From Nitrospira sp. (GTDB lineage Bacteria > Nitrospirota > Nitrospiria > Nitrospirales > Nitrospiraceae), in NCBI GenBank assembly GCA_005116945.1, contig SWDH01000002.1, positions 44,621 through 68,620 of the forward strand: 24,000 nucleotides of DNA, in the 5' to 3' direction. The translations under genes and the position numbers were made by a program. The notes beneath the pieces were generated by a model that saw nothing but the letters and a program-made list of their open reading frames with translations, searched no databases and was not told where the DNA came from. Numbering within the stretch: the first letter of the stretch is position 1; each line of letters starts with the position of its first letter. Positions 9,011 through 21,682 of the stretch are shown here, piece after piece.

Positions 9011-9026
9011 TGGCACGCCTATTGCT
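9011..9026 (+). promoter_or_regulatory. sigma-54 (RpoN) -24/-12 promoter
   Basis: TGGCAC-gccta-TTGCT is an exact match to the TGGCAC-N5-TTGCW core with correct GG-to-GC spacing (12 nt). It faces the sigma-54 activator gene 455 nt downstream. Confidence 0.6.
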
Positions 9027-9480: not shown

Positions 9481-10917
9481 ATGACAAGCGGCAAGGTCCT
9501 CGTTGTAGAAGATGACGAAGGGATTTGGGAGCTCCTGAAGGCCGCCTTGGAGCCTGAGTTTGAGCTCCTGATCACGTCTGTCCCTGACAAAGCACTGAGT
9601 CTTGTCACACACGAGTTACCCGATCTGGTGTTACTCGATTTGGGCCTCCCACCGGCTCCACGCGACCATAAAATTGGCATCCAACTGCTCAGGAATTTGA
9701 GAAAAGTGGCCCCTCGCATAAAGGTGGTTGTCTGCACAGGCTTGTCCGGGTATGAGGCGGCGAGCCACGCCATCAGCCTTGGCGCCCACGACGTCATCTA
9801 TAAACCCTTTTGTGTTGAAGCCCTCCAAGCCGTCGTGCGAAGAGTCTGTTGGATGGCTCACATCGATCAGCAGCAGGGCCGGAAGGTACCTGAGGATGAG
9901 CTCCTGGAAGAAATGGTCGGAACCAGTCCCGCCATGCGCAAGGTCTTCGAGATGGTCCGGAGGGTCAGCACAACCGACATGCCGGTGTTGATCACGGGGG
10001 AAACGGGAACGGGCAAGGAACTGACGGCCCGAGCAATTCATGACCGGAGCGACCGAAAGACGGGTCCGTTCGTGCCGATCAATTGCGGCGCCATTCCTGA
10101 AACATTACTGGAATCTGAACTCTACGGGCATGAACGGGGGGCCTTTACCGGAGCCCTGCAGCAGAAGAAAGGCAAGTTCGAGGCAGCGGCAGGCGGGACA
10201 TTGTTTCTGGATGAAGTCGGCGATCTCCTTCCCTCGCTCCAGGTCAAATTGCTCCGTTTTCTGCAGGAGGGAACCTTTGAACGGGTCGGCGGTCAGCAGA
10301 CCCTGCACCTCAACATTCGTGTGATCACCGCGACCAACATCGACCTTCAGGCAGCCATCTGTAAGAATATGTTTCGAGAGGACCTCTATTACCGGCTAGG
10401 CATGCTGCATATTCATCTCCCCCCGCTCCGGGAACGTGGCGAAGACACGCTGCTCATGGCGATGGTTTTTCTTAAGAGAGCCGCTGCCTCATCCCATGGA
10501 AAGCGAATACGAGGCTATACCCAAGAAGCCGTCGAAGCCATCCAATCCTACCAGTGGCCGGGCAATGTGCGGGAGTTAGGCAATAGGGTCAGGCGAGCCG
10601 TGGTCATGGCGGAGGGTCAGGAAATTACGCCCCAGGACCTGGGTCTGACCTGCGAGACCCTCCAATCAGCAAACGGTCTCGACTCCCTGAGGGCCGCGCA
10701 CCGCCGGATTGAAATGGAGCTGATCATGAAAGCAATGAGTGTGCATCAAGGGAATTTGAGCCGCGCAGCGCAAGAACTAGAAGTGTGCCGCTCGACGCTC
10801 TATCGAAAAATTCATGAATTCCACCTTGAAGAATTCGTGCTCTCAGCGAACCCTAACCGGTTTCCGCAGCCATTCCCAACTCGTGAGTCCCTCGATAGGA
10901 AGCCCTCAGATAGCTGA
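9481..10917 (+). CDS. sigma-54-dependent response regulator (NtrC/Fis-family enhancer-binding protein)
   Basis: GGGAGA precedes the ATG. The REC domain has VLVVEDDEG, the phospho-acceptor LLDLGLPP (Asp53), VVVCTG and IYKPF. The AAA+ domain has Walker A GETGTGKE, GAFTGA, Walker B LFLDEVG and the ESELFGHE-type ESELYGHERGAFTGA. The C-terminal Fis-type HTH is GNLSRAAQELEVCRSTLYRKI. No histidine kinase gene is present in the window. Confidence 0.92.
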   Translation: MTSGKVLVVEDDEGIWELLKAALEPEFELLITSVPDKALSLVTHELPDLVLLDLGLPPAPRDHKIGIQLLRNLRKVAPRIKVVVCTGLSGYEAASHAISLGAHDVIYKPFCVEALQAVVRRVCWMAHIDQQQGRKVPEDELLEEMVGTSPAMRKVFEMVRRVSTTDMPVLITGETGTGKELTARAIHDRSDRKTGPFVPINCGAIPETLLESELYGHERGAFTGALQQKKGKFEAAAGGTLFLDEVGDLLPSLQVKLLRFLQEGTFERVGGQQTLHLNIRVITATNIDLQAAICKNMFREDLYYRLGMLHIHLPPLRERGEDTLLMAMVFLKRAAASSHGKRIRGYTQEAVEAIQSYQWPGNVRELGNRVRRAVVMAEGQEITPQDLGLTCETLQSANGLDSLRAAHRRIEMELIMKAMSVHQGNLSRAAQELEVCRSTLYRKIHEFHLEEFVLSANPNRFPQPFPTRESLDRKPSDS

Positions 10918-11405
10918 CGCACCATCCGGGGACGGATTCCGTTCTCCAGCCTATGTCGAACCCGTCCTCAGCGTCAGCTTAAAGAAATTTAGGGTTCGCA
11001 TCATCAAAATTCACATCAGATCGTTTGAGTGCCCCCAGCACAATCAACATAGTATTTCGGTACCTTCTCTGTTTCTTCGCTGATCTATGTGGAATCATGG
11101 AAGGGTAGATCTAGCAGGCTCTGATCAAGAGCCAACCTGGATCTGTCTAGAAATGTGACAAAGCATAATGCGCCAGCGATGCTCATCGAGTGTACAAAAG
11201 TCTGGATACCACAGCATATAGTAGGGATTTCACCAACATCTTCTGTATTATCGGCTCACCTACCTTATTTTCCCCAAAATGCGAATGACGCGGCACCCTG
11301 GGACCGTATAGACATTAGACAGTCACGCGCGCTTGCTTCGATTCTCTGCCCTCCATCCCTCTTTTCAGCCAGATAATCCTTTATCTATCAATACCTTTTT
11401 CAATC

Positions 11406-11421
11406 AGGCACGCTAATTGAG
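11406..11421 (+). promoter_or_regulatory. weak candidate sigma-54-like promoter upstream of the repeat-protein operon
   Basis: aGGCACG-ctaa-TTGAg has a good -24 element and correct spacing, but -12 is TTGA rather than TTGC, so the conserved C is lost. No GAATC/GATTC array lies upstream of it. Confidence 0.25.
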
Positions 11422-11928
11422 TACAGCACAACCATGAGGCACGTGGGCGGTGTGGAACGTCGCTGGGAGTGTGGTGGCGGCGGAACTGGCGCGCCGAGCT
11501 TTCCGGCAAATACTGAGCTCGACCATGTCCAGTCAATCCGTCCTTTTGGTTTTCTCAGTTCACAGGGGTTCGGATGTTCCACCAGACAGGGTTCTGGGGA
11601 TCGATATGCCAGCCGGTTCACCAAATGAGAAGAAAAAAGATCGCTCTAAAAACAAGCAGGCAAAAAGTCAGGTCACTCCCGCGGTGCAGCAAGTTCACGT
11701 CGTGCTACGCGTTGACCTATGGGATGACCCCCCAAAGGACAATTCACAGAAAGAGGACGAAAACGATAGTGATGCGTACGTGGGCCATGCATGAGGGCAG
11801 GATCTCTGATGAAAAACTCATATCTAAACAACAGATGAAAGGAGGTGGAGGAGGAGGAATGAGAATGCGACCGAAAGCCAGACCGAGTCATAGCGAAGTG
11901 ATTACGCAACAGAAGAGGAGGAAGAACA

Positions 11929-12774
11929 ATGATTAAGAAAAGTATCATCTTCTCGCTCATGGCCGTGGTAGGCGCGCTGCCTGCCGTCGCGATGGCGGAT
12001 GTCGAAGTGCGAGCGGACGTCAATAAGCGAAAGGACATTCGGATCGTGGAGCGGATCGATATTACCAAACTAGTTCAGATCGATGCACGGGTCAACAGAC
12101 GGGTGCAGAAGGCTGCCGAATCTCAGACGCTCGTGAACCAAACGAATTTCGACAATGAGGTTTGCACCAATTGCGATGAGAAACGAGACATCATTGATAA
12201 TTCCGGAAGCGGAAGTTCTGGTGTCCTGAGCATCAATCAATCGGCGGGCAACATGAACAACCAAGGCAACGCCGTCAGTATCGCCGTCGATGTCCCTGAT
12301 AATGGTGGGCCGAGAATCCCGGGTGACCCTGATGAGGGGTTTGCCGATGCGCAGGCCCATGTGGATCAGAAAAATTTCGGCAACGTCGTCGAGACCGTCA
12401 ACATCCTGTTCCGGGACGCGCTCATTCGAAACTCCATCAACAACAACAGGGGCGTGGCGCATGTGAATCAAGCGCCGGGGAACATGGCTAACCAATCCAA
12501 CGCGTTCTCACTGGCAGTGTCGCTGACTGGTTCAGGCGGCGGCGTAGCTTTGGCGGAAGCCGATCTTGGCCAGGTGAATACAAGGAACATTGTCCGTGAA
12601 TCTGATTCTCAAGGTCGAGACCAGACGGATCCGGGGTTTGTCGGCATCAACAAGCGGGCCGATATCCTGGGATCCATTAATGGCAACACCGGCGTGGTCG
12701 GTGTGAATCAAAGCGCGGGGAACATGGCCAACCAAGCCAACGTAGTGTCGTTCGCATCCGCCGGAGTGAGATAG
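11929..12774 (+). CDS. secreted Asn/Gln/Gly repeat protein, Fap-type amyloid subunit-like (paralogue 1)
   Basis: Strong SD GAGGAGG precedes the ATG. Signal peptide: MIKKSIIFSLMAVVGALPAVAMA. There are three roughly 33-aa repeats at nt 12190-12288, 12421-12519 and 12664-12759. They read IIDNSGSGSSGVLSINQSAGNMNNQGNAVSIAV, LIRNSINNNRGVAHVNQAPGNMANQSNAFSLAV and ILGSINGNTGVVGVNQSAGNMANQANVVSFAS. A single CTNC motif is present. Confidence 0.8.
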   Translation: MIKKSIIFSLMAVVGALPAVAMADVEVRADVNKRKDIRIVERIDITKLVQIDARVNRRVQKAAESQTLVNQTNFDNEVCTNCDEKRDIIDNSGSGSSGVLSINQSAGNMNNQGNAVSIAVDVPDNGGPRIPGDPDEGFADAQAHVDQKNFGNVVETVNILFRDALIRNSINNNRGVAHVNQAPGNMANQSNAFSLAVSLTGSGGGVALAEADLGQVNTRNIVRESDSQGRDQTDPGFVGINKRADILGSINGNTGVVGVNQSAGNMANQANVVSFASAGVR

Positions 12775-12806: not shown

Positions 12807-13673
12807 ATGGATATGCACAGACTGATGGGACGAGTCCTGTTGACCCTGCCGATGGTGGCGATGGCCATACCCATGCCGGCGCAGGCGTCGCTTGACCTGT
12901 TGGCGAGGATTACAAAGGAAAAGGATATCACGGTGACTCAAAGAGTTCAGATTGACAAGAATATCGACATCAGGGTGAGACTTAACGAAGATTATGCTGG
13001 GGCTGCGGAAGCCGATGCTGTAGCGAATCAACTCAACGAGGGTAATACTGTGGCAGGCAATATAGGTAACCAGGTACCTGGCCACGGTCCCTCCTATGGC
13101 ATCAATCGACATGCGCGGATCGCTGATTCGATTAATACGAACCAGGGTATCGTGGGGGTCAACCAAGACGTCGGCAATATGGTCAATCAGGCGAACGTGG
13201 TTGCGGTCGCCCTGACGACTAGCCCAAGCTCGGTCACAAACTCCCAGGCAGAGGCCGACCAGGTGAACAGAAGAAACGATGTGGTGCAGCGTGAGCACCT
13301 GGTACGAGGCCCCGATGGAGTACTTCTTGTGCCTCCAGATCGTAGTGCGACCATCGAGGATTCGGTCAACGGCAACTCCGGGGTTATCGGAGTCAATCAG
13401 AACTCCGGGAATATGAACAATCAACTGAACCAACTTGCCTTAGCGATAGGACAAGGTTCAAAGGTGGCGCTCTCCGAAGCCGCCTTGGGTCAGGTGAATA
13501 CAGGCAATAGGGTCTTAGAGGTTGCAACTATTCGGGAAGATCGAATCAGTGGGTCCGTCAATAATAACAGTGGAATCGTGGGCGTCAATCAGTCCAGCGG
13601 CAACATGAACAACCAGGCTTCCGTGGTCAGCATGGCGGTTCTGACGAGCCGTGTCGCGATTACGACACCGTAG
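12807..13673 (+). CDS. secreted Asn/Gln/Gly repeat protein, Fap-type amyloid subunit-like (paralogue 2)
   Basis: SD AAGGAGGA precedes the ATG. The signal peptide ends PMPAQA. The N-terminal module ITKEKDITVTQRVQIDKNIDIRV is paralogous to VNKRKDIRIVERIDITKLVQIDARV of paralogue 1. The three repeats are IADSINTNQGIVGVNQDVGNMVNQANVVAVAL, IEDSVNGNSGVIGVNQNSGNMNNQLNQLALAI and ISGSVNNNSGIVGVNQSSGNMNNQASVVSMAV. Confidence 0.8.
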   Translation: MDMHRLMGRVLLTLPMVAMAIPMPAQASLDLLARITKEKDITVTQRVQIDKNIDIRVRLNEDYAGAAEADAVANQLNEGNTVAGNIGNQVPGHGPSYGINRHARIADSINTNQGIVGVNQDVGNMVNQANVVAVALTTSPSSVTNSQAEADQVNRRNDVVQREHLVRGPDGVLLVPPDRSATIEDSVNGNSGVIGVNQNSGNMNNQLNQLALAIGQGSKVALSEAALGQVNTGNRVLEVATIREDRISGSVNNNSGIVGVNQSSGNMNNQASVVSMAVLTSRVAITTP

Positions 13674-13730: not shown

Positions 13731-13768
13731 GGGAGGCACAGTACCCTGAAATGGGAGGCACGGTGAAG

Positions 13769-14524
13769 ATGTCAATAATTCTCCAGGGACTGGTGTGGTG
13801 GCTGGTGGGATTGTCGGTGGCCATCGCCCAGGTGCAGGACGGCGAAATAATCGCGCCACAGTCCGACAGCCTTGTTTCCCAAGGTGGGACAGGCGGGTTG
13901 GAGGCAGTCCATGCCGTGGTCAATGCGGCGGGAAGCAGTTCCAGCCAGGCTCTTGTGAGCCAGATTCAAATCGGCAATGTAATGGAAGAAGGACTGACAG
14001 CCAGTCTGGCTATTGTACGGGATTCCTTTCAGAACAATCGAGGAATCATCGGGGCCAATCAAAATTCTGGGAACCTGAACAATCAGGCCAACGTACATGT
14101 GATTGCCCACAACTCAGTCGGCCCGACGATCCAGCTGGAACATGCCGCGATCGAGCAGCGGCTTGAGGAGAACACGATCGTGACCAGCGGCACGGCGCGG
14201 GAAGATCGTATTCAGGACAGTTTTGGCGGAACAGTCGGGATTGTGGGCATCAATCAATCGGCCGGCAATCTCAACAATCAAGCGAATGTCATAGTGATCA
14301 CGCTCGGGATGGGTTCGGAGTTCGTGCCCTTGGAAGATTCGTCGCTGGGTGCGGTGAATTCCGGTAACAAGCTGATCCCGGGTCCACCGGGCCCGAAGTC
14401 GGACGTGATCCTCGATTCCTTCGCCGGGTTTCGCGGGTTGGCGCAGGTATCTCAATCAGCGGGTGATCTGAATTCTGTGAGCAACAAGATGAACATCTCC
14501 TTTTCAGCGATGACGTTGAAGTAG
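13769..14524 (+). CDS. secreted Asn/Gln/Gly repeat protein, Fap-type amyloid subunit-like (paralogue 3, divergent)
   Basis: GGGAGG at 13753-13758 lies 10 nt before the ATG at 13769. Signal: MSIILQGLVWWLVGLSVAIAQ. The repeats are VRDSFQNNRGIIGANQNSGNLNNQANVHVIA, IQDSFGGTVGIVGINQSAGNLNNQANVIVIT and a degenerate ILDSFAGFRGLAQVSQSAGDLNSVSNKMNISF. It lacks the KDI..I..RV N-terminal module of paralogues 1 and 2. Confidence 0.75.
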   Translation: MSIILQGLVWWLVGLSVAIAQVQDGEIIAPQSDSLVSQGGTGGLEAVHAVVNAAGSSSSQALVSQIQIGNVMEEGLTASLAIVRDSFQNNRGIIGANQNSGNLNNQANVHVIAHNSVGPTIQLEHAAIEQRLEENTIVTSGTAREDRIQDSFGGTVGIVGINQSAGNLNNQANVIVITLGMGSEFVPLEDSSLGAVNSGNKLIPGPPGPKSDVILDSFAGFRGLAQVSQSAGDLNSVSNKMNISFSAMTLK

Positions 14525-15234
14525 TGAGGCGCATGATGAAGATGATGAGGATAGGCGTATGGGTGGGAAGCGCGGTGGTGGCGGCCAATGTGGCCTTGCT
14601 TTCCTCTGCATGGGCTTCGTTCCCCTTCCCTCTTCCTGGCGGGACGACCATGGTGACGGCCCCGGTGAAGAGTTTCGTGGAATTGCGCTATAGGAATATG
14701 GTGCGGCAAGCGTATGACATCAGTTGCGGTGCAGCGGCGCTCGCAACCATCCTCGACTATTTTTATGACGAAACCTTCACGGAGCAGTCGGTGATGGACG
14801 ACATGACGCCGCTCGGCGACAAGGACAAGATCGAGAAAGAAGGATTCTCACTACTTGAGATGAAGCATTATGCGGAGAAGCTCGGCTATGTCTCAAACGG
14901 CTACCGGCTGGACGATGTGCAGCGGCTTGCAGAACTGCAAGTTCCGGTGATCGGCTTGGTGAATGCTCGAGGATACAACCACTTTGTCGTGATTAAGGGA
15001 GTCGTTGAGGACAAGGTCTATCTTGCCGATCCAGCCTTTGGGAACAGCACCAGGCCGGTGGACGGGTTCGACCAGGAATGGAACGGGATCATCCTCGTGG
15101 TCTTGCACCCCACAAAGGCAGGCAGCAGCACCTTTGCCATGGATGCGCGACCCTCTGCTCAGATGAATCAGCTCATTCAGATTTTGCCACGGCTCGCTCC
15201 GCCCTTCAACAACCGAGGACCAGGGGAATTTTAA
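14524..15234 (+). CDS. periplasmic stand-alone C39-family cysteine peptidase (FapD-like)
   Basis: The start overlaps the upstream stop (TAGTG); ATG 14533 or 14536 are alternatives. Sec signal: ...VAANVALLSSAWA. The C39 catalytic set is QAYDISCGAAALATIL (Cys68), YNHFVVIKG (His153) and YLADPAFG (Asp169). There is no ABC transporter portion. Confidence 0.85.
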   Translation: MRRMMKMMRIGVWVGSAVVAANVALLSSAWASFPFPLPGGTTMVTAPVKSFVELRYRNMVRQAYDISCGAAALATILDYFYDETFTEQSVMDDMTPLGDKDKIEKEGFSLLEMKHYAEKLGYVSNGYRLDDVQRLAELQVPVIGLVNARGYNHFVVIKGVVEDKVYLADPAFGNSTRPVDGFDQEWNGIILVVLHPTKAGSSTFAMDARPSAQMNQLIQILPRLAPPFNNRGPGEF

Positions 15235-15283: not shown

Positions 15284-15760
15284 ATGTGGTCCAAACTCCT
15301 CACGGTCGCAGCACTGAGCTGGATGCTTGTTGTCCCCATTGCCAATGCCGACGGGACGGTCAGTGATCTCGCCCCGGTTGATGAGGATGAGTGGGGAATT
15401 CCACTGACGGACAACGAACTCGCTGACCTGCGAGGTGGATTCAACGGCCTGGCATTCAATATCGCGTTCTCAGGGTTCGTCGACAAGCTGGGCAACGGCT
15501 CCGGCAATCTGACGGTTGGGCAAAATGGGGCCATTGTGCCAGGGGTACCTCCGGACGTCACTGTCAAGGACGGTGAGGTTCGGATCAGTACCGGCATCGG
15601 CAACTTCCAGGGCGCCAACGGCATCTTCCAAATCGCACAGGTGCCGGGGAACTTCAACGTCGTCAACAACAACCTGTACGTGCAGATTGCGCTGATCAAT
15701 CTGATCGACCCGGGGACTCAAGTGCCAAACCTTGCGAGTCTCTTTGGAACACCGCGGTGA
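15284..15760 (+). CDS. small secreted protein with double-glycine-leader-like motif and one degenerate amyloid-type repeat (FapE-position gene)
   Basis: SD GAGGTGG lies 6 nt before the ATG. Sec signal: MWSKLLTVAALSWMLVVPIANA. This is followed by LTDNELADLRGG (nt 15404-15439). The C-terminal GANGIFQIAQVPGNFNVVNNNLYVQIAL (nt 15611-15694) resembles the G..G.NQ.AGN.NNQ.N core of the upstream subunits. Confidence 0.7.
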   Translation: MWSKLLTVAALSWMLVVPIANADGTVSDLAPVDEDEWGIPLTDNELADLRGGFNGLAFNIAFSGFVDKLGNGSGNLTVGQNGAIVPGVPPDVTVKDGEVRISTGIGNFQGANGIFQIAQVPGNFNVVNNNLYVQIALINLIDPGTQVPNLASLFGTPR

Positions 15761-16004
15761 CCGTTCGGCCCTCTAGTATGGTAGACGGTCTAAGCAGCAG
15801 ACAGATTGGCCCAGTCGGGACGGCATTTATTAGAAGTGCTGACTGGGTTTTGCCACGTGCCGACCATTCTCAGCCCCTGTGGGAAGATCAAGCTGTATTG
15901 AGACTATGCTATCGGCGTGGGGTTCTGTGACCATACCGATGGCCACATGCACTCCGAATACGCTAGGATCAGATCCGAGCTGGACATCCCAGCCCAGGTT
16001 TCGT

Positions 16005-17150
16005 ATGGGACGAGCGTGGTTGGGCCTTGCCCTCCTTGTCTGTACGATCTGTTCCACGGTATATGCCCAAGAGCCTCTGCCGCAGCCGCCAGAGGAACTT
16101 CCTGTCCCTCAACCTCCGATTACGAATGAACAGCCCCAGCCGGGTCCACGTGAACCTCAGCCGCTCGTCACTCCTGCATCACCGCAAGCTGCTCCCATCG
16201 GGGCCGAACCCGAGCGACCCAAGTCCCAAAAACCGATCGACCAACTGCTCCTCCAACGCGGCGCGATCTTGCTGCCCCCCGGATGGCTCCAAGTCGAACC
16301 GTCGTTCGATTATTTAAAGTTTTCTACCGATCGTCTGAATATCAACGGTCTCAGTCTCTTCGAAGCAATCGTCATCGGGGAAATCCGCGCGGACAAGGTG
16401 ACACGAGAGGTCGCCACAGCCGCGATCAATCTGCGCTACGGGCTGATGAATCGGCTCCAGATTGAGGCTCGCATACCCTATGTCTACCGGCACGATCGAG
16501 AGCTTCTCGCGGTCGGCACACAGAATGAAGCCGAGCGAAATGTCGACAATCAGGCGCTCGGCGATGTAGAAGGCTCTCTAGTCTGGCAGGCGTACCTTGG
16601 GAGCGACTCCTCACCAGCAGTGCTGCTTCGATTGCGGGGTCGGAGCCGGACCGGTAAGGATCCATTTACGATCCCGGTGGAGCAAATCCCTGTGCAAGGC
16701 GCCCAGGGCCAGGTACGCTCACAACTGACGGATGTGCCCACCGGCAACGGCTACTGGAGCGTCGCCCCTGGATTTACCATGGTGTGGCGAACCGACCCCG
16801 TCGTGCTCTTCGCAGGAGCCAACTACTCCATCAACCTCGAGCGTACGATCGGGGGACTGGGACGGTTGGAACCAGGGGATAATTGGGACATCTTCTTGGG
16901 GTTGAACTTCGCGGTGAGCGAGAAACTCGGCATCAACATGACGGCAGTTGACTCGAATTTTGCCACCACGCGAGTCAACGGGGTGAAGCAACCAAACACG
17001 GCGTTCAACAGCGGCGTCCTGTCGATAGGGACTTCGATTGTCCTCAGTTCAACGCGTACTCTACTCATCTCCGTCGGAAAAGGATTGACGGAAGAGTCGC
17101 CGGATTTTCAGTTCTCGATCAGCTTGCCGTTGACGTTTCATGTGTTTTAA
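16005..17150 (+). CDS. outer-membrane beta-barrel protein (FapF-like / MetA-pathway 'transporter' type) with Pro-rich N-terminal linker
   Basis: The best start is ATG 16005, which gives the signal MGRAWLGLALLVCTICSTVYAQ; the listed start at 15879 adds 42 non-signal residues. About 65 aa form a Pro/Gln-rich linker. Alternating amphipathic strands follow, and the C-terminus FSISLPLTFHVF ends in the aromatic residue typical of OM barrels. Confidence 0.75.
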   Translation: MGRAWLGLALLVCTICSTVYAQEPLPQPPEELPVPQPPITNEQPQPGPREPQPLVTPASPQAAPIGAEPERPKSQKPIDQLLLQRGAILLPPGWLQVEPSFDYLKFSTDRLNINGLSLFEAIVIGEIRADKVTREVATAAINLRYGLMNRLQIEARIPYVYRHDRELLAVGTQNEAERNVDNQALGDVEGSLVWQAYLGSDSSPAVLLRLRGRSRTGKDPFTIPVEQIPVQGAQGQVRSQLTDVPTGNGYWSVAPGFTMVWRTDPVVLFAGANYSINLERTIGGLGRLEPGDNWDIFLGLNFAVSEKLGINMTAVDSNFATTRVNGVKQPNTAFNSGVLSIGTSIVLSSTRTLLISVGKGLTEESPDFQFSISLPLTFHVF

Positions 17151-17185: not shown

Positions 17186-18223
17186 ATGAAGACCGTGACT
17201 GCGATCCGCGCGTTGCTGATGATCGCCCTTCTGTGTGTCACCGAATCGGTGCAGGGAGAAGAGTGGAAGCTGGTGAGATTCTCGTACAGCAGCGGCTGGG
17301 ATGCCTTGCCGGCCATCGTGGCAATCGAGCGAGGATTTTTTGCAAAGGAACAACTGGTTGTCAGCGGGTTGACCGCAACCTCGGCAGATGCCGTCGCAAA
17401 TTCGCTGGCTAATGGTTCGACGGATGTAGCGGTCCTGCCTCAACGGACGCTCTTGGCCCTGGCAGCGGTCCGGTTGCCGATGAGGATTGTGTCGATGAAC
17501 CATTGGGGGACCGAGATGGAGTTAGTGGTGCCGCCGGGGCAGGAGAAGGTGAAATCGCTCGCCGATTTAAAAGGCAGGACGATTGCCATCGGCAAAGCCT
17601 CGGAAGCCTACCCCGCCCTGATTCGCTTGCTGAACAAAGACAAATTGCGGCCAACGGACGTGATCATCAAGGATCTGCCGGTCGAGACGCTCACCCAGGT
17701 TTTTCGACAGAAGGACAGACTGGCCGACGCGGTCTTCGAGTCCAGACACTTTACCTCGGTGCTGCAGAAGACCAGCCAAGCGCGGGTGGTGCTTTCGGCG
17801 CACGATGTCACAGAGAAACTCGGCTATATCGGTGCCTCCCCGCTTGTCGTTCGGCAAGAGCTGATCGAGAAGGAGCCAAAAACCGTGCAGCAGTTTGTGA
17901 AGGGGTGGGTCAACGCTCTTCACTACATTCAACAGGACCCCGAAGATGCGGCCCGACTGCTCATGATTTTCTTTCACCGTCAAGGCGTCAACGCCGTGTC
18001 CGAAGAGATGACCAAGTCATGGGTGGCCATGACTCGCTATGACCGGTTCATCTGGACGACGACCGATATTACGGATGCGGAATACAACGGATGGGGCCTC
18101 AAGGAAGGCGGGCTGCTTAGCGCGGCCCCGAAACTCAACGAGCTTGTGGAAAACCGATTCGCTCGAGTGGCCGTGGACAGCATAGAAGTCTCTACCCGAG
18201 CAAAGGCCTCAGGGAAGCCGTAG
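17186..18223 (+). CDS. periplasmic substrate-binding protein, NMT1/THI5-SsuA/TauA-like (NitT/TauT family), orphan
   Basis: Signal: MKTVTAIRALLMIALLCVTESVQG. The fold-typical segments are GWDALPAIVAIERGFFAKEQL..., LKGRTIAIGKASEAY and GYIGASPLVVRQELIEKEPKTVQQFVKGW. No permease or ATPase gene is adjacent. Confidence 0.7.
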   Translation: MKTVTAIRALLMIALLCVTESVQGEEWKLVRFSYSSGWDALPAIVAIERGFFAKEQLVVSGLTATSADAVANSLANGSTDVAVLPQRTLLALAAVRLPMRIVSMNHWGTEMELVVPPGQEKVKSLADLKGRTIAIGKASEAYPALIRLLNKDKLRPTDVIIKDLPVETLTQVFRQKDRLADAVFESRHFTSVLQKTSQARVVLSAHDVTEKLGYIGASPLVVRQELIEKEPKTVQQFVKGWVNALHYIQQDPEDAARLLMIFFHRQGVNAVSEEMTKSWVAMTRYDRFIWTTTDITDAEYNGWGLKEGGLLSAAPKLNELVENRFARVAVDSIEVSTRAKASGKP

Positions 18224-18306
18224 GACTGACAGAAAGAGGACGCTCTCCGGTGCGAATCAGCTGGAGGGGGCACCGATGGAGCCGTCAGAGCTTCCGTTCT
18301 CATTCT

Positions 18307-20100
18307 ATGTACAACAACAGAATTCTTCCCTCTCGAGGACCTGCAGTCCTCCGTCTTGTCTTTGTCCTCGTTACCATCGCACTGGTCGGCTGCTCCGGCA
18401 GCCCGCAGCAGCGCTCGGGGAATCAACAGGCCTGCCTACCCGCGCATGATCGGCCTTCCTGTTTCTATGTGGAAGCTCTTGAGCAAAAAAATACGAAACT
18501 GATCATCTTCGTCCGTGGGGTCTTTGGGAGCGCAGCAACCACCTGGGGGAATCCGCGGAGGGAAGCGTTTTGGCCGGCGATGGTCGCGAAAGACCCGCAG
18601 TTTGCGGGCTACGACATTTACTTGATCAATTACCATACCCCTTACCTCGGAGAAGCTCCGGATGTGCATGAGACCGCTGGCAATGAGCTTGAACAGTTAT
18701 TGAGTCGGAAGATACTCGACAAGTATGACGAGATCTATTTTATCGCACATAGCATGGGTGGCCTTGTGACCAAGAGCCTGCTCACGCAGCTTAATCGAGG
18801 ACAAGATGTGGCTCTACTGCGTCGGGTCAAAGGGGTGGCGTATTTGTCCACACCGGCACAGGGAGCAGATGGTGCCGGCCTAGCCGCATGGTTAGCGCTC
18901 AATCCTCAGCTCGGGAACCTGGAGCGCGCACATCTCGGCACCTACATCGTACGTCTTGAGGATCAATGGATTCAGCTAATGGATAATCGAGACAAGGTCA
19001 AGGCCGAGTTTCCCCGAGTGTATTGTGCCTATGAAACGCGGAAGTCGGGCCCCGTATGGGTCGTGCCAAAAGAATTGGCGAGTTCGCGTTGTGATGGGCC
19101 GCTCTACCCCATGCCGTTTCATCATTTTGGAATGGCGAAACCCTCGCGGAGCGACGATGACCCGTATCGCTGGACCATGGGAAAAATCCTGGAGGCCGGA
19201 GTAAGCGAGGTAACGCGACGCAACGCTGCGGCGCTGTTGTGGTCGGCGGCAGCATCAGTCCATGCAGGAGACCAAGCTGCAGCACGTCGGGCCTACGATG
19301 AGTCCAGTGCGCTGTATGTGAAGCTGGGCGACCGGCAGGCACAGGCCAATGTGCTCCGCGGCTTGGGCGACTTGGAATCTTTACTCGGCCGCAATGAGGA
19401 AGCGCAGACCGCCTATACGGAGGCCCGCAGCCTCTACAGGGTTGTGGGGGATCGCCTGGGTGAAGCCAATGTACTCAACAGCCTAGGCCACTTGGAATCC
19501 AAGCTCGGCCGCATTGACGAGGCACGGACCGCCTACATGGAGGCCCGCAATCTGTATACAGCGATAAGAAGTCGCCTGGGTGAAGCCAATGTGCTCGTTG
19601 GCCTGGGGGACTTGGAGTCCCAGCTCGGCCGCACGGACGAGGCGCGGACCGCTTACACGGAGGCTCATAGCCTGTACAAGGCCGTGGGGAGTCGCCTGGG
19701 TGAAGCCAATGCGCTCGTCGGTCTAGGCCATTTGGAGTTCCAGCTCGGACGCAAGGACGAGGCGCGGACCGCCTACATGGAGGCCCACAATTTATTCAAG
19801 GCCGAGGGAGGTCGACTGGGTGAAGCCCATGTGCTTCGCGGCCTGGGCGACTTGGAGTTCCAGCTCGGCCGCACGGACAAGGCGCGAAACGCTTACACGG
19901 AGGCCCATAGCCTATACAAGGCCGTGGGGAGCCGCCTGGGTGAAGCTCATACACTTTTAAGCTCAGGACGGCTGGAGGCACTAATTAATCCGGAACTCGC
20001 GAGACAGCATTTCCACCAAGCTGCATCTATTTATGAGCAAATCGGTATGAACAAGTGGCGAGAGATCGCATTGAGTCACACCAAGGACCTCTCTCACTGA
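18307..20100 (+). CDS. lipoprotein: N-terminal alpha/beta-hydrolase (lipase/esterase-like, GxSxG) plus C-terminal 40-aa TPR-like repeat array
   Basis: The ATG at 18307 gives ...LVFVLVTIALVGCSG (lipobox). The nucleophile elbow is FIAHSMGGLV (Ser149). From about aa 325 there are six to seven 40-aa repeats of the type ARTAYTEAHSLYKAVGSRLGEANVLVGLGDLESQLGRTDE. Confidence 0.75.
   Translation: MYNNRILPSRGPAVLRLVFVLVTIALVGCSGSPQQRSGNQQACLPAHDRPSCFYVEALEQKNTKLIIFVRGVFGSAATTWGNPRREAFWPAMVAKDPQFAGYDIYLINYHTPYLGEAPDVHETAGNELEQLLSRKILDKYDEIYFIAHSMGGLVTKSLLTQLNRGQDVALLRRVKGVAYLSTPAQGADGAGLAAWLALNPQLGNLERAHLGTYIVRLEDQWIQLMDNRDKVKAEFPRVYCAYETRKSGPVWVVPKELASSRCDGPLYPMPFHHFGMAKPSRSDDDPYRWTMGKILEAGVSEVTRRNAAALLWSAAASVHAGDQAAARRAYDESSALYVKLGDRQAQANVLRGLGDLESLLGRNEEAQTAYTEARSLYRVVGDRLGEANVLNSLGHLESKLGRIDEARTAYMEARNLYTAIRSRLGEANVLVGLGDLESQLGRTDEARTAYTEAHSLYKAVGSRLGEANALVGLGHLEFQLGRKDEARTAYMEAHNLFKAEGGRLGEAHVLRGLGDLEFQLGRTDKARNAYTEAHSLYKAVGSRLGEAHTLLSSGRLEALINPELARQHFHQAASIYEQIGMNKWREIALSHTKDLSH
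19279..19977 (+). repeat. in-frame tandem 120-bp repeats (about six copies) encoding the TPR-like array
   Basis: Units such as ggtgaagccaatgtgctc...ggcctgggcgacttggagt[ct]ccagctcggccgcacggac[ga]aggcgcg[ga]accgc[ct]tacacggaggc recur every 120 nt, with long stretches of nucleotide identity. Confidence 0.8.
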
Positions 20101-20419: not shown

Positions 20420-21682
20420 TCACCCTGGCAGCGCCTGATACCAGCCGTTGGCTTGAGCCAATGATACCGGGCAATCGAATAACTGGCTGAGATTGGCTTC
20501 TGTGAGAAGAGATCGCTTCTCTCCATCTTGGAGAATTTTCCCTTGCTTCAAGAGCACCACACGCTCGACTTCCGGAGGGATCTCGTGAATGTGGTGCGTC
20601 ACCAGTAATAGGGTTTTTCCTTTCCGCATATGCGCCCGCACCAGGTCCAGGTAGTGAAACGTCGCCGTAAGGTCGAGTCCGCTGGTGGGTTCATCCAGCA
20701 CCAACACGCTCGGGTCATGCACCAGCGCACGGCCCAGCAAGCAGCGCCGTTGCTCGCCGGTCGACATCTCGGAGAATTTTCTGTCGATCAAGAACCCGAC
20801 ACCGAGTTCTTCCATCACGACACGGGCACGAGCAACCTGGGCATCGGTAAAATCTTGATGCCCGTAGATTCCAATGCTCGCATAGTAGCCTGACAACACG
20901 ACTTTCAATCCCGTCACATGTTCCATGTACTGATGCTGAAGGTCGTGCGACACCATGCCCAACCGTTTACGCACGTCCCAGACGTTCCACCACGCTTCGC
21001 CGAACACACCAATGGATGTCTCATCCTTGGGAAGCGAATGCACTTCACCGGACAGCATTTTAAGGATCGTCGACTTGCCTGCGCCATTGGGACCAAGGAT
21101 CGCCGTGTGAACCCCTGCTGTAAGCATGAAGGACAAGTCGACGAATACGCAGGCGTCACCCCGATACACTGTCGCGTTCTTGATGTCGAGGATTGGATAT
21201 GAACTAGTCGTAGAGACCGCCTGCGCGACGATCCCGCCGACAGCCTGACCAGCACGTCGAGACTGTTCAAGGCCGGCACGAGCCAGTGCATCCACACGTT
21301 CGTTATCCGGGTGGCCGGAGTGTCCCTTGACCCAGCGCCATTCAAGCGTGTGACCTGCAGCCAGGGCATCGAGGCGACGCCACAAATCCTCATTCTTGAC
21401 CGGCTCCTTCGTGGAAGTTCTCCAGCCTCGTTTCTTCCAGCTATGGATCCATTCGCTAATGCCTTTTTGCACATACTGCGAATCGGTGTAGACATGCGCT
21501 TCCACCGGCTCCGTAAGCGACTGCAAGGCCTCGATCACCGCAAGCAGCTCCATGCGGTTGTTCGTCGTCGCCGGCTCCCCACCGCACAGTTCCGTTTCGA
21601 CAATGCCGCTACGCAACAGAGCGCCCCAGCCACCTGGTCCGGGATTCCCACTGCAAGCACCATCTGTGTAAATCTCGATCAT
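20420..21682 (-). CDS. rnhA: RNase HI domain fused in one ORF to a soluble ABC-type ATPase domain
   Basis: aa 1 to about 142 are RNase HI: [22 protein letters not shown]...[15 protein letters not shown]...VYTDSQYV...[18 protein letters not shown]. After the linker [25 protein letters not shown] comes an ABC ATPase with Walker [10 protein letters not shown], signature MSTGEQRR, Walker [13 protein letters not shown] and H-loop LVTHH. No stop codon separates the two halves. The symbol applies to the N-terminal half only. Confidence 0.75.

Follow-up and report, generated by a model that had tools for sequence, protein, structure and literature searches.

What does a free periplasmic C39 peptidase cut, and at which residue? 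The question is raised by a Fap-like operon of Nitrospira sp. (assembly GCA_005116945.1, contig SWDH01000002.1, positions 44,621 to 68,620; this whole stretch of 24,000 nucleotides is called the window below). Here the gene for a FapD-like stand-alone periplasmic C39 cysteine peptidase of 236 amino acids (aa) (14524-15234, + strand) is followed, after a gap of 49 nucleotides (nt), by an open reading frame (ORF) whose translation is a 158-aa FapE-like protein (15284-15760, + strand). FapD is periplasmic in Pseudomonas and its catalytic Cys is required for the secretion of FapC (Rouse et al. 2017, PMC5557850); the same Cys is essential for secretion of the Fap amyloid, a biofilm and virulence factor. 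Rouse et al. proposed FapE, and possibly also FapF, as the substrate of FapD, with the N-terminus being trimmed, without naming a site, and saw ‘no canonical C39 sequence’ (PMC5557850). Reviews of 2018 and December 2025 repeat the idea that FapD trims FapE, again without a site, and targeted literature searches, in which subscription papers were only partly covered, found no published FapD cut site in FapE.

The 158-aa protein carries a motif that resembles a double-glycine (GG) leader. The best-supported reading of this motif is a two-step maturation, in which export by Sec would be followed by docking of FapD on a helix at positions -12 to -4 and then by a cut after G-G (G-R in Pseudomonas). 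On balance, this sequence of events seems somewhat more likely than not. That FapD trims FapE is a known hypothesis, while the specific, conserved leader-like site appears to be new. Thus, the original prediction, which took the substrate of FapD to be unsettled and offered a candidate together with a site, retains its novelty for the site, the candidate having been put forward in 2017. The predicted cut would lie after G52 here and after R40 (or G39) in Pseudomonas FapE, so that a nine-year-old question about the FapD site becomes directly testable at the level of single residues.

A double-glycine-type motif behind a Sec signal peptide

The gene for the 158-aa protein has a Shine-Dalgarno sequence, AGAGGTGG, 6 nt 5' of its ATG. 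A Sec signal peptide of 22 residues (MWSKLLTVAALSWMLVVPIANA, 15284-15349, ending ...PIANA|DG) was called by inspection of the sequence from its n-, h- and c-regions and an A-x-A site. It is followed by aa 23-40 (15350-15403), the variable spacer of a putative propeptide, which is weakly conserved in 187 representatives of the family, and then by the GG-leader-like motif, LTDNELADLRGG, at aa 41-52 (15404-15439), which is the proposed recognition helix and scissile site for FapD. The remainder, aa 53-158 with the stop codon (15440-15760), is the predicted mature protein and comprises an aromatic beta-hairpin block, FNGLAFNIAFSGF, followed by a single Fap-type repeat (about aa 104-136, nt 15593-15691). 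All of these features lie on the + strand.

Set against the GG-leader consensus, LSxxELxxIxGG (PMC1538908), LTDNELADLRGG has hydrophobic residues (L41, L46 and L49) at -12, -7 and -4, a Glu (E45) at -8 and the pair G51-G52 at -2/-1, and it also has an S/T-type residue at -11, as in the consensus. The location of the motif, its assignment to residues 41-52 and its fit at all conserved positions, as first predicted, are confirmed. When the 24-kb window is translated in six frames, the pattern [LIVMF]xxxE[LIVMF]xx[LIVMF]xGG is found a single time, at the motif site. It arises in 0.22% of shuffles of the 158-aa protein, and in 0.045% within the 40 residues behind the signal peptide.

Conservation across the family

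A word-seeded search gave 49 homologues, and a full profile search of 1.84 billion representatives gave 197 clusters at 50% identity; conservation was counted over 187 aligned representatives, clustered at 50% identity. The residues at -3 and -2 (R50 and G51) are present in 187/187. Position -1 is more relaxed, with G in 159 (85%), A in 10, R in 10, K in 4, T in 2 and M in 2. The hydrophobic positions are strongly kept, -12 being L, V, I or M and -7 being L or M in 186 representatives each, with L, M, I, V or A at -4 in 162. An acidic residue (D/E) is found at -10 in 168, E at -8 in 131 (70%) and S or T at -11 in 104. The family consensus, LSDxE[LM]xxLRGG, therefore fits LSxxELxxIxGG at all consensus positions. 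In the mature part, F58, G106, F108, G110, G113, Q116, P121, G122 and N125 are invariant.

These counts bear on the simplest alternative, that the GG-leader consensus was matched by chance in a single sequence. The motif is short, and the shuffles show that a match can arise in this way; however, its conservation in 187 divergent representatives and in Pseudomonas FapE (see below) already refutes the idea, and the site is also the sole six-frame match in the window, so that chance can be given practically no weight. The motif is real, non-random and deeply conserved. Alignment of orthologues over the L..EL..L.GG block had been set beforehand as a refutation test for the original prediction, and its outcome was strongly in favour of the motif.

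The placement of the motif in the protein is far less constant than its sequence. The invariant Arg sits anywhere from about residue 36 to about residue 230, with a median of 53, and the segment between signal peptide and motif varies in both sequence and length. Such hypervariability is as expected of a pro-region that is discarded.

A short member of the FapE lineage

A contig scan retrieved 80 Pseudomonas fap loci, from which 79 FapE sequences were extracted. All 79 carry [EQ][LMI]xxLRGR[YF]VMPGR, and in Pseudomonas FapE the fuller block P[IV]E[LVIM]xDx[EQ][LMI]xxLRGR[YF]VMPGR[IV][IV]SFG stands within a few residues of the signal peptide. When the Nitrospira-type family was aligned with 26 Pseudomonas FapE sequences by hhalign, the signal peptide, the motif and the next block were brought together (probability 88.7%, E = 2.5e-6). 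LTDNELADLRGG aligns in this comparison with ELRGR of Pseudomonas FapE, in which the second Gly is replaced by Arg; this replacement is a plausible reason why the site was missed by Rouse et al.

The profile match and the shared blocks mark the 158-aa protein as a short homologue of FapE, and its motif as ancestral to FapE. Its match to the NCBIfam FapE model NF058559 is slight (12.5 bits and E = 0.06 over aa 108-136, below the equivalog cut-off of 250); 17 of 43 relatives also match this model weakly, the best with E = 4e-4, and weak NCBIfam FapE/FapB matches cover aa 95-136 of the 158-aa protein. Judged by sequence, the 158-aa protein belongs to the FapE lineage as a short and divergent member, and is a predicted minor subunit of a Fap-type functional amyloid.

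The neighbouring C39 peptidase

The peptidase encoded directly upstream matches Pfam Peptidase_C39 (PF03412) with E = 2.4e-23 and 82.9 bits (cut-off 22), and NCBIfam C39_FapD (NF058616) with E = 4e-45 and 153.8 bits, below the equivalog cut-off of 330. It has an N-terminal hydrophobic signal of its own and no ABC transporter domains, so that its earlier description as a stand-alone enzyme with a signal peptide, encoded just ahead of the motif protein, was correct. Gln62, Cys68 (nt 14725-14727), His153 (14980-14982) and Asp169 (15028-15030), the nucleotide positions being those of the + strand, are all present and align with the catalytic residues of Pseudomonas FapD and of LahT150, PCAT1 and ComA; the catalytic Gln/Cys/His/Asp set is intact in 16/16 FapD sequences compared. 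Amongst solved structures the closest relative is LahT150 (6mpz, E = 1.5e-10), followed by PCAT1 and ComA.

The pairing of the two genes is general in the contexts examined. A Peptidase_C39 gene lies directly upstream of the family member in 12/12 contigs looked up, usually with FapBC genes before the C39 gene and a FapF-like gene after the family member. The same pairing holds for the window, for two short contigs from metagenomes and for those Pseudomonas loci, 78/80, in which a FapD ORF was recovered.

A separate feature of the peptidase is its C-terminus, ...GPGEF (15226-15234). It belongs to a conserved aromatic tail, GEF or REF in the Nitrospira-type systems and SDFF in Pseudomonas, which calls to mind the C-terminal signals of outer-membrane proteins or of partner docking.

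Occurrence of the motif on other proteins

All ORFs of 50 aa or longer in the window, in 13 related loci and in 5 Pseudomonas loci, 232,000 residues in total, were searched with a 14-column hidden Markov model (HMM) of the motif. The model scores the window site at 21.8 bits and matches every FapE-like gene and only two other proteins, against a background of at most 3.7 bits. Within the operon, none of the three large repeat proteins, FapD or FapF rises above 3.7 bits, in agreement with the earlier statement that the repeat proteins have no comparable motif.

Both of the additional proteins are small, have a signal peptide, lack a Pfam match and are encoded in Fap-like operons related to that of the window. 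On contig L088 (2112-2441, + strand) the motif reads LSDAELKEIRGR|FLPAF... and scores 16.1 bits; on contig L092 (3515-4093, + strand) it reads ISELELGSVRGG|ESGDAS..., and the sequence that follows the GG is unrelated to FapE. The motif thus behaves as a portable tag, and to judge from the tag the products of these two genes may be extra FapD substrates.

Proposed maturation pathway

The complex of LahT150 with its leader provides the model for recognition. The last 13 leader residues are enough for recognition by this peptidase; residues -4 to -11 form a two-turn helix, the side chains at -4, -7 and -12, which are the mutation-sensitive positions, enter a hydrophobic groove, and residues -1 to -3 lie extended in the active site (PMC6363468). 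The motif of the 158-aa protein covers about 13 residues, the length that suffices for LahT150, and this supports a two-step maturation.

In the proposed pathway, the Sec signal (aa 1-22) would bring the protein to the periplasm and be removed by signal peptidase, leaving a predicted propeptide of aa 23-52. By analogy with the LahT150 complex, the last 12-13 residues of this propeptide would form a short amphipathic helix from -11 to -4, from which Leu-12, Leu-7 and Leu-4 would enter a hydrophobic groove of FapD whilst R-G-G extends into the active site. FapD, with Cys68, His153 and Asp169, would then cut after Gly52 and expose a conserved aromatic N-terminus, FNGLAFNIAF.... The trimmed FapE might in this way become competent to engage the FapF channel and license secretion of the fibre subunits, a speculative step that draws on the phenotypes of the Pseudomonas FapD C38A and fapE mutants. 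Pseudomonas FapE has the same block, ...ELxELRG-R|Y..., right behind its signal peptide, and the prediction would extend to that protein, with Arg tolerated at P1.

The original prediction of Sec export followed by a periplasmic GG cut is therefore favoured in its outline by the conserved motif, by the universal pairing with a C39 peptidase in the contexts examined and by the likeness to LahT150; it needs amendment in that the conserved pair is R-G and not G-G.

A broader formulation can be envisaged, in which ‘Sec-then-C39’ maturation is widespread. A portable 13-residue propeptide of the GG type would lie behind a Sec signal, FapE would be the main target and other small operon proteins occasional ones, and the cut would serve as a checkpoint for FapF-dependent amyloid secretion; ELRG-R|Y would be the Pseudomonas FapD site, with P1 relaxed from Gly to Arg, Lys or Met. 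This wider scheme is a little on the doubtful side of even. If the cut at the residues predicted here is real, the motif could be used to find further substrates and the site could be a target for anti-biofilm inhibitors.

Objections and alternative readings

A number of observations argue against cleavage at the motif, or against its exact register. Cleavage by FapD is a prediction for the whole family that combines sequence with analogy. The residue at -1 is R, K or M in 16/187 representatives and R in all Pseudomonas FapE examined, which is atypical for C39 enzymes; characterised C39 domains take G, A or S at this position. With R, K, M, A or T at -1 in the representatives that lack G there, and R in the Pseudomonas FapE examined, FapD cannot be a strictly canonical GG protease. 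The Arg at -3 is invariant, unlike in GG leaders; in LahT150 substrates the -3 residue is Ala and tolerates mutation. An alternative register, with the cut after the invariant G and the R at P2, is also conceivable. Curated GG-leader models (TIGR01847 bacteriocin_sig and others) give no match to the window peptide. The best homologue reaches 14.3 bits with TIGR01847, against a cut-off of 15.7, and the other leader families give 12-17 bits against cut-offs of 21-40, so that all matches, including those of a few homologues at 14-17 bits, are sub-threshold.

Comparison of 16 FapD/FapE pairs also lends no help: no FapD columns were found to covary with the -1 residue of FapE beyond what phylogeny gives. 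In these pairs His+4 (I/V versus L/M) and position 177 do track the small or large class of the -1 residue, including one switch within a clade. They were rejected as determinants of the -1 residue, because 18 columns segregate by phylogeny alone and two that follow the trait inside a clade are about what chance would give. His+4, the best of the columns, was also rejected as a specificity column, being L in LahT150 and I in PCAT1, both of which cut GG. An Arg-to-Glu swap before the oxyanion Gln, considered as a further correlate of the -1 residue, failed once more pairs were added.

Another difficulty is that conservation does not stop at the putative cut. It runs on past the motif into an [FY]xGxxFxxxFxG block and is contiguous from -12 to about +15, so that the motif could belong to a folded N-domain. 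AlphaFold2 models the 158-aa protein with a helix at 43-49 (-10 to -4), a low-confidence flexible stretch at 51-55, and strands or hairpins at 58-102, where the predicted local distance difference test score (pLDDT) is about 77; with a mean pLDDT of 59.5, the model as a whole is of low confidence.

The contiguous conservation and the modelled hairpins are what would be expected if the block were a structural part of the FapE N-domain, a helix capping a beta-hairpin, its likeness to GG leaders having arisen by convergence and FapD acting instead on FapF or on FapB/C. The sub-threshold leader-HMM matches can be read in the same way, and an [RQEK]-G-[GA] sequence at the start of the plug of FapF-like channels, together with the published speculation that FapF is cut at GG/GA, would supply FapD with another target. 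However, the match extends to all consensus positions with correct spacing, two proteins with little or none of the FapE core also carry the motif, and the segment before the motif varies extremely in length, as a discarded pro-region would. Whole-cell mass spectrometry also points to FapE itself: it is the sole Fap protein without N-terminal peptides, whilst FapA-D keep their N-termini (PMC5557850). A purely structural role for the block thus seems improbable.

The mass spectrometry is less decisive about where FapE is cut. The first Pseudomonas FapE peptide starts at residue 72, with a non-tryptic N-terminus, and was seen once, in one replicate (PMC5557850). A start at 72 rather than 41 leaves a cut at the motif neither proved nor disproved, and loss of the entire N-domain would fit it too. 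It could therefore be that the motif is a docking or targeting element and not the scissile site, binding FapD through a C39-like chaperone surface, or binding the periplasmic coiled coil or the plug of FapF. The cut would then be made at another place, such as around residue 71 in Pseudomonas FapE, where it would take off the conserved N-domain as a whole. Rouse et al. pointed to other GG/GA dipeptides in FapE and FapF (PMC5557850) that might then be used. R, K or M at -1 is a poor fit to the S1 site of C39 enzymes, conservation crosses the putative cut, as noted above, and type 1 secretion systems are known in which a C39-like domain tethers the substrate without being catalytic.

Against the docking view stand the intact catalytic residues of every FapD compared and the requirement for the FapD Cys in Pseudomonas. 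The residue-72 peptide is a single observation. Moreover, trypsin would release only one 6-residue peptide and one long hydrophobic peptide from residues 41-71 of Pseudomonas FapE; with such poor products, the absence of peptides from 41-71 is uninformative. Finally, characterised GG leaders are all cut directly after the helix-GG unit. A docking element with a cut elsewhere is thus the less likely outcome, to be taken seriously as a minority view, and a FapD cut at the end of the motif is preferred.

Operon context and flanking genes

Three paralogous FapB/FapC-like amyloid repeat proteins, presumed to be the fibre subunits, are encoded ahead of the peptidase (11929-12774, 12807-13673 and 13751-14524, all + strand). 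They match NCBIfam FapC/FapB with E = 1e-12 to 1e-16, below cut-off, and their counterparts in related contigs match PF27129 FapBC. A FapF-like outer-membrane channel follows the 158-aa gene (15879-17150, + strand), its true start being likely the ATG at 16005. It matches NCBIfam FapF (NF058560) over profile positions 119-420 with E = 1.1e-38 and 133.1 bits versus a cut-off of 700, has a match to Pfam Phenol_MetA_deg and aligns with Pseudomonas FapF; it is a FapF homologue outside the FapF equivalog. The operon order is thus three FapB/C-like genes, the FapD-like gene, the 158-aa gene and the FapF-like gene, with the 158-aa gene in the fapE position, between fapD and fapF. The Fap matches are significant yet far below the NCBIfam equivalog cut-offs, which marks this as a distant Fap-like system.

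One block, [RQEK]-G-[GA]-[IVS]-L-[LIV]-P-x-G, is conserved in the predicted plug region of the FapF-like channels. The window copy is LLQRGAILLPPG, with QRGA at aa 126-129 (16254-16265); examples from other FapF-like channels are LERRGGVLLPAG and VEKGGSLIGAG. Pseudomonas FapF has no block of exactly this form. The block may have a structural role, or it may be the second GG/GA site on which Rouse et al. speculated.

Upstream of the operon lies the gene for a sigma-54-dependent response regulator (9481-10917, + strand; Pfam Sigma54_activat, E = 2e-70), the probable regulator of the operon. It scores 483 bits against TIGR02915 (PEP-CTERM-box regulator), just below the cut-off of 502.6. Sigma-54 activators also flank the related operons on L088, L089 and L092, and a perfect sigma-54 -24/-12 consensus, TGGCACGCCTATTGC, is found at 9011-9025, upstream of the response regulator. 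Sigma-54 control of this type of Fap-like operon is suggested. A sigma-54 promoter directly upstream of the operon was considered and rejected, since the best site there (11406-11420) has 2 mismatches and the number of matches in the window is not above chance. Between the regulator and the first FapB/C-like gene there is about 1 kb without a convincing gene (10918-11928); near 11843-11860 it has a purine-rich run, ggaggtggaggaggagga. Neither the operon nor the 10918-11928 region showed a FapA-like gene, and an Rfam scan of the window gave no matches.

A gene for an NMT1/SsuA-type periplasmic binding protein adjoins the Fap-like operons in three unrelated contigs (17186-18223 in the window, 3008-4090 in L081 and 5794-6492 in L092). 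Further downstream in the window, a 616-aa protein (18250-20100, + strand) has a putative serine-esterase/DUF676-like domain at its N-terminus, joined to a long series of TPR repeats that are almost identical to one another. One 420-aa ORF on the opposite strand (20420-21682, - strand) has the unusual architecture of an RNase H (Pfam E = 3.5e-48, aa 2-137) fused to an ABC-transporter ATPase (E = 4e-25, aa 181-333).

Relation to known systems

The nearest known system is the fapABCDEF operon of Pseudomonas. The order of the FapB/C-like, FapD, FapE-position and FapF genes is the same, the catalytic residues of Pseudomonas FapD are conserved in the Nitrospira peptidase, and FapE has in both cases a signal peptide followed by xDxE[LM]xxLRG[GR][FY] and a C-terminal Fap-type repeat. 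In contrast, Pseudomonas FapE is about 247 aa long, versus 158 aa here, and has G-R in place of G-G; the operon here has no detected fapA, three FapB/C paralogues and an adjacent sigma-54 regulator; and the host is a Nitrospira rather than one of the Proteobacteria in which Fap was defined, with all NCBIfam Fap equivalog scores far below cut-off. A further parallel is the Fil putative pilus system of Acinetobacter. The window peptidase matches FilB (C39) with E = 2.9e-35 and the channel matches FilC with E = 2.5e-11, so that Fil appears to be a further case in which a periplasmic C39 peptidase goes together with a FapF-like channel, although both scores are far below the FilB and FilC cut-offs.

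The likeness to the GG leaders of class II bacteriocins, of ComC (cut by ComA), of colicin V and of the lanthipeptide and Nif11 precursors cut by LahT150 lies in the recognition unit and in its enzyme. There is the same unit of 12-13 residues, in which -12, -7 and -4 are hydrophobic, -11 is Ser/Thr, -8 is Glu and -2/-1 is G-G, the same predicted helix at -10 to -4, and a cognate C39 peptidase with Gln/Cys/His/Asp encoded next door. The differences lie in how the unit is deployed. In classical GG leaders it is at the extreme N-terminus, whereas here a Sec signal and a variable spacer precede it and its first residue is 41; many lineages also admit R, K or M at -1. Where the classical cargo is a small peptide, the one here is a protein of about 105 aa that includes an amyloid-type repeat. 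Unlike in the C39-ABC exporters, the peptidase is a free periplasmic protein and no ABC exporter accompanies the operon, export being attributed to Sec and to the outer-membrane FapF channel. Thus, the pair of LTDNELADLRGG and the C39 enzyme would work like a GG leader with its peptidase, yet is outside the classical family, being non-N-terminal, without an ABC exporter and below the HMM thresholds. If cleavage at the motif is true, the GG-leader/C39 principle would be extended from the cytoplasmic side of ABC exporters into the periplasm.

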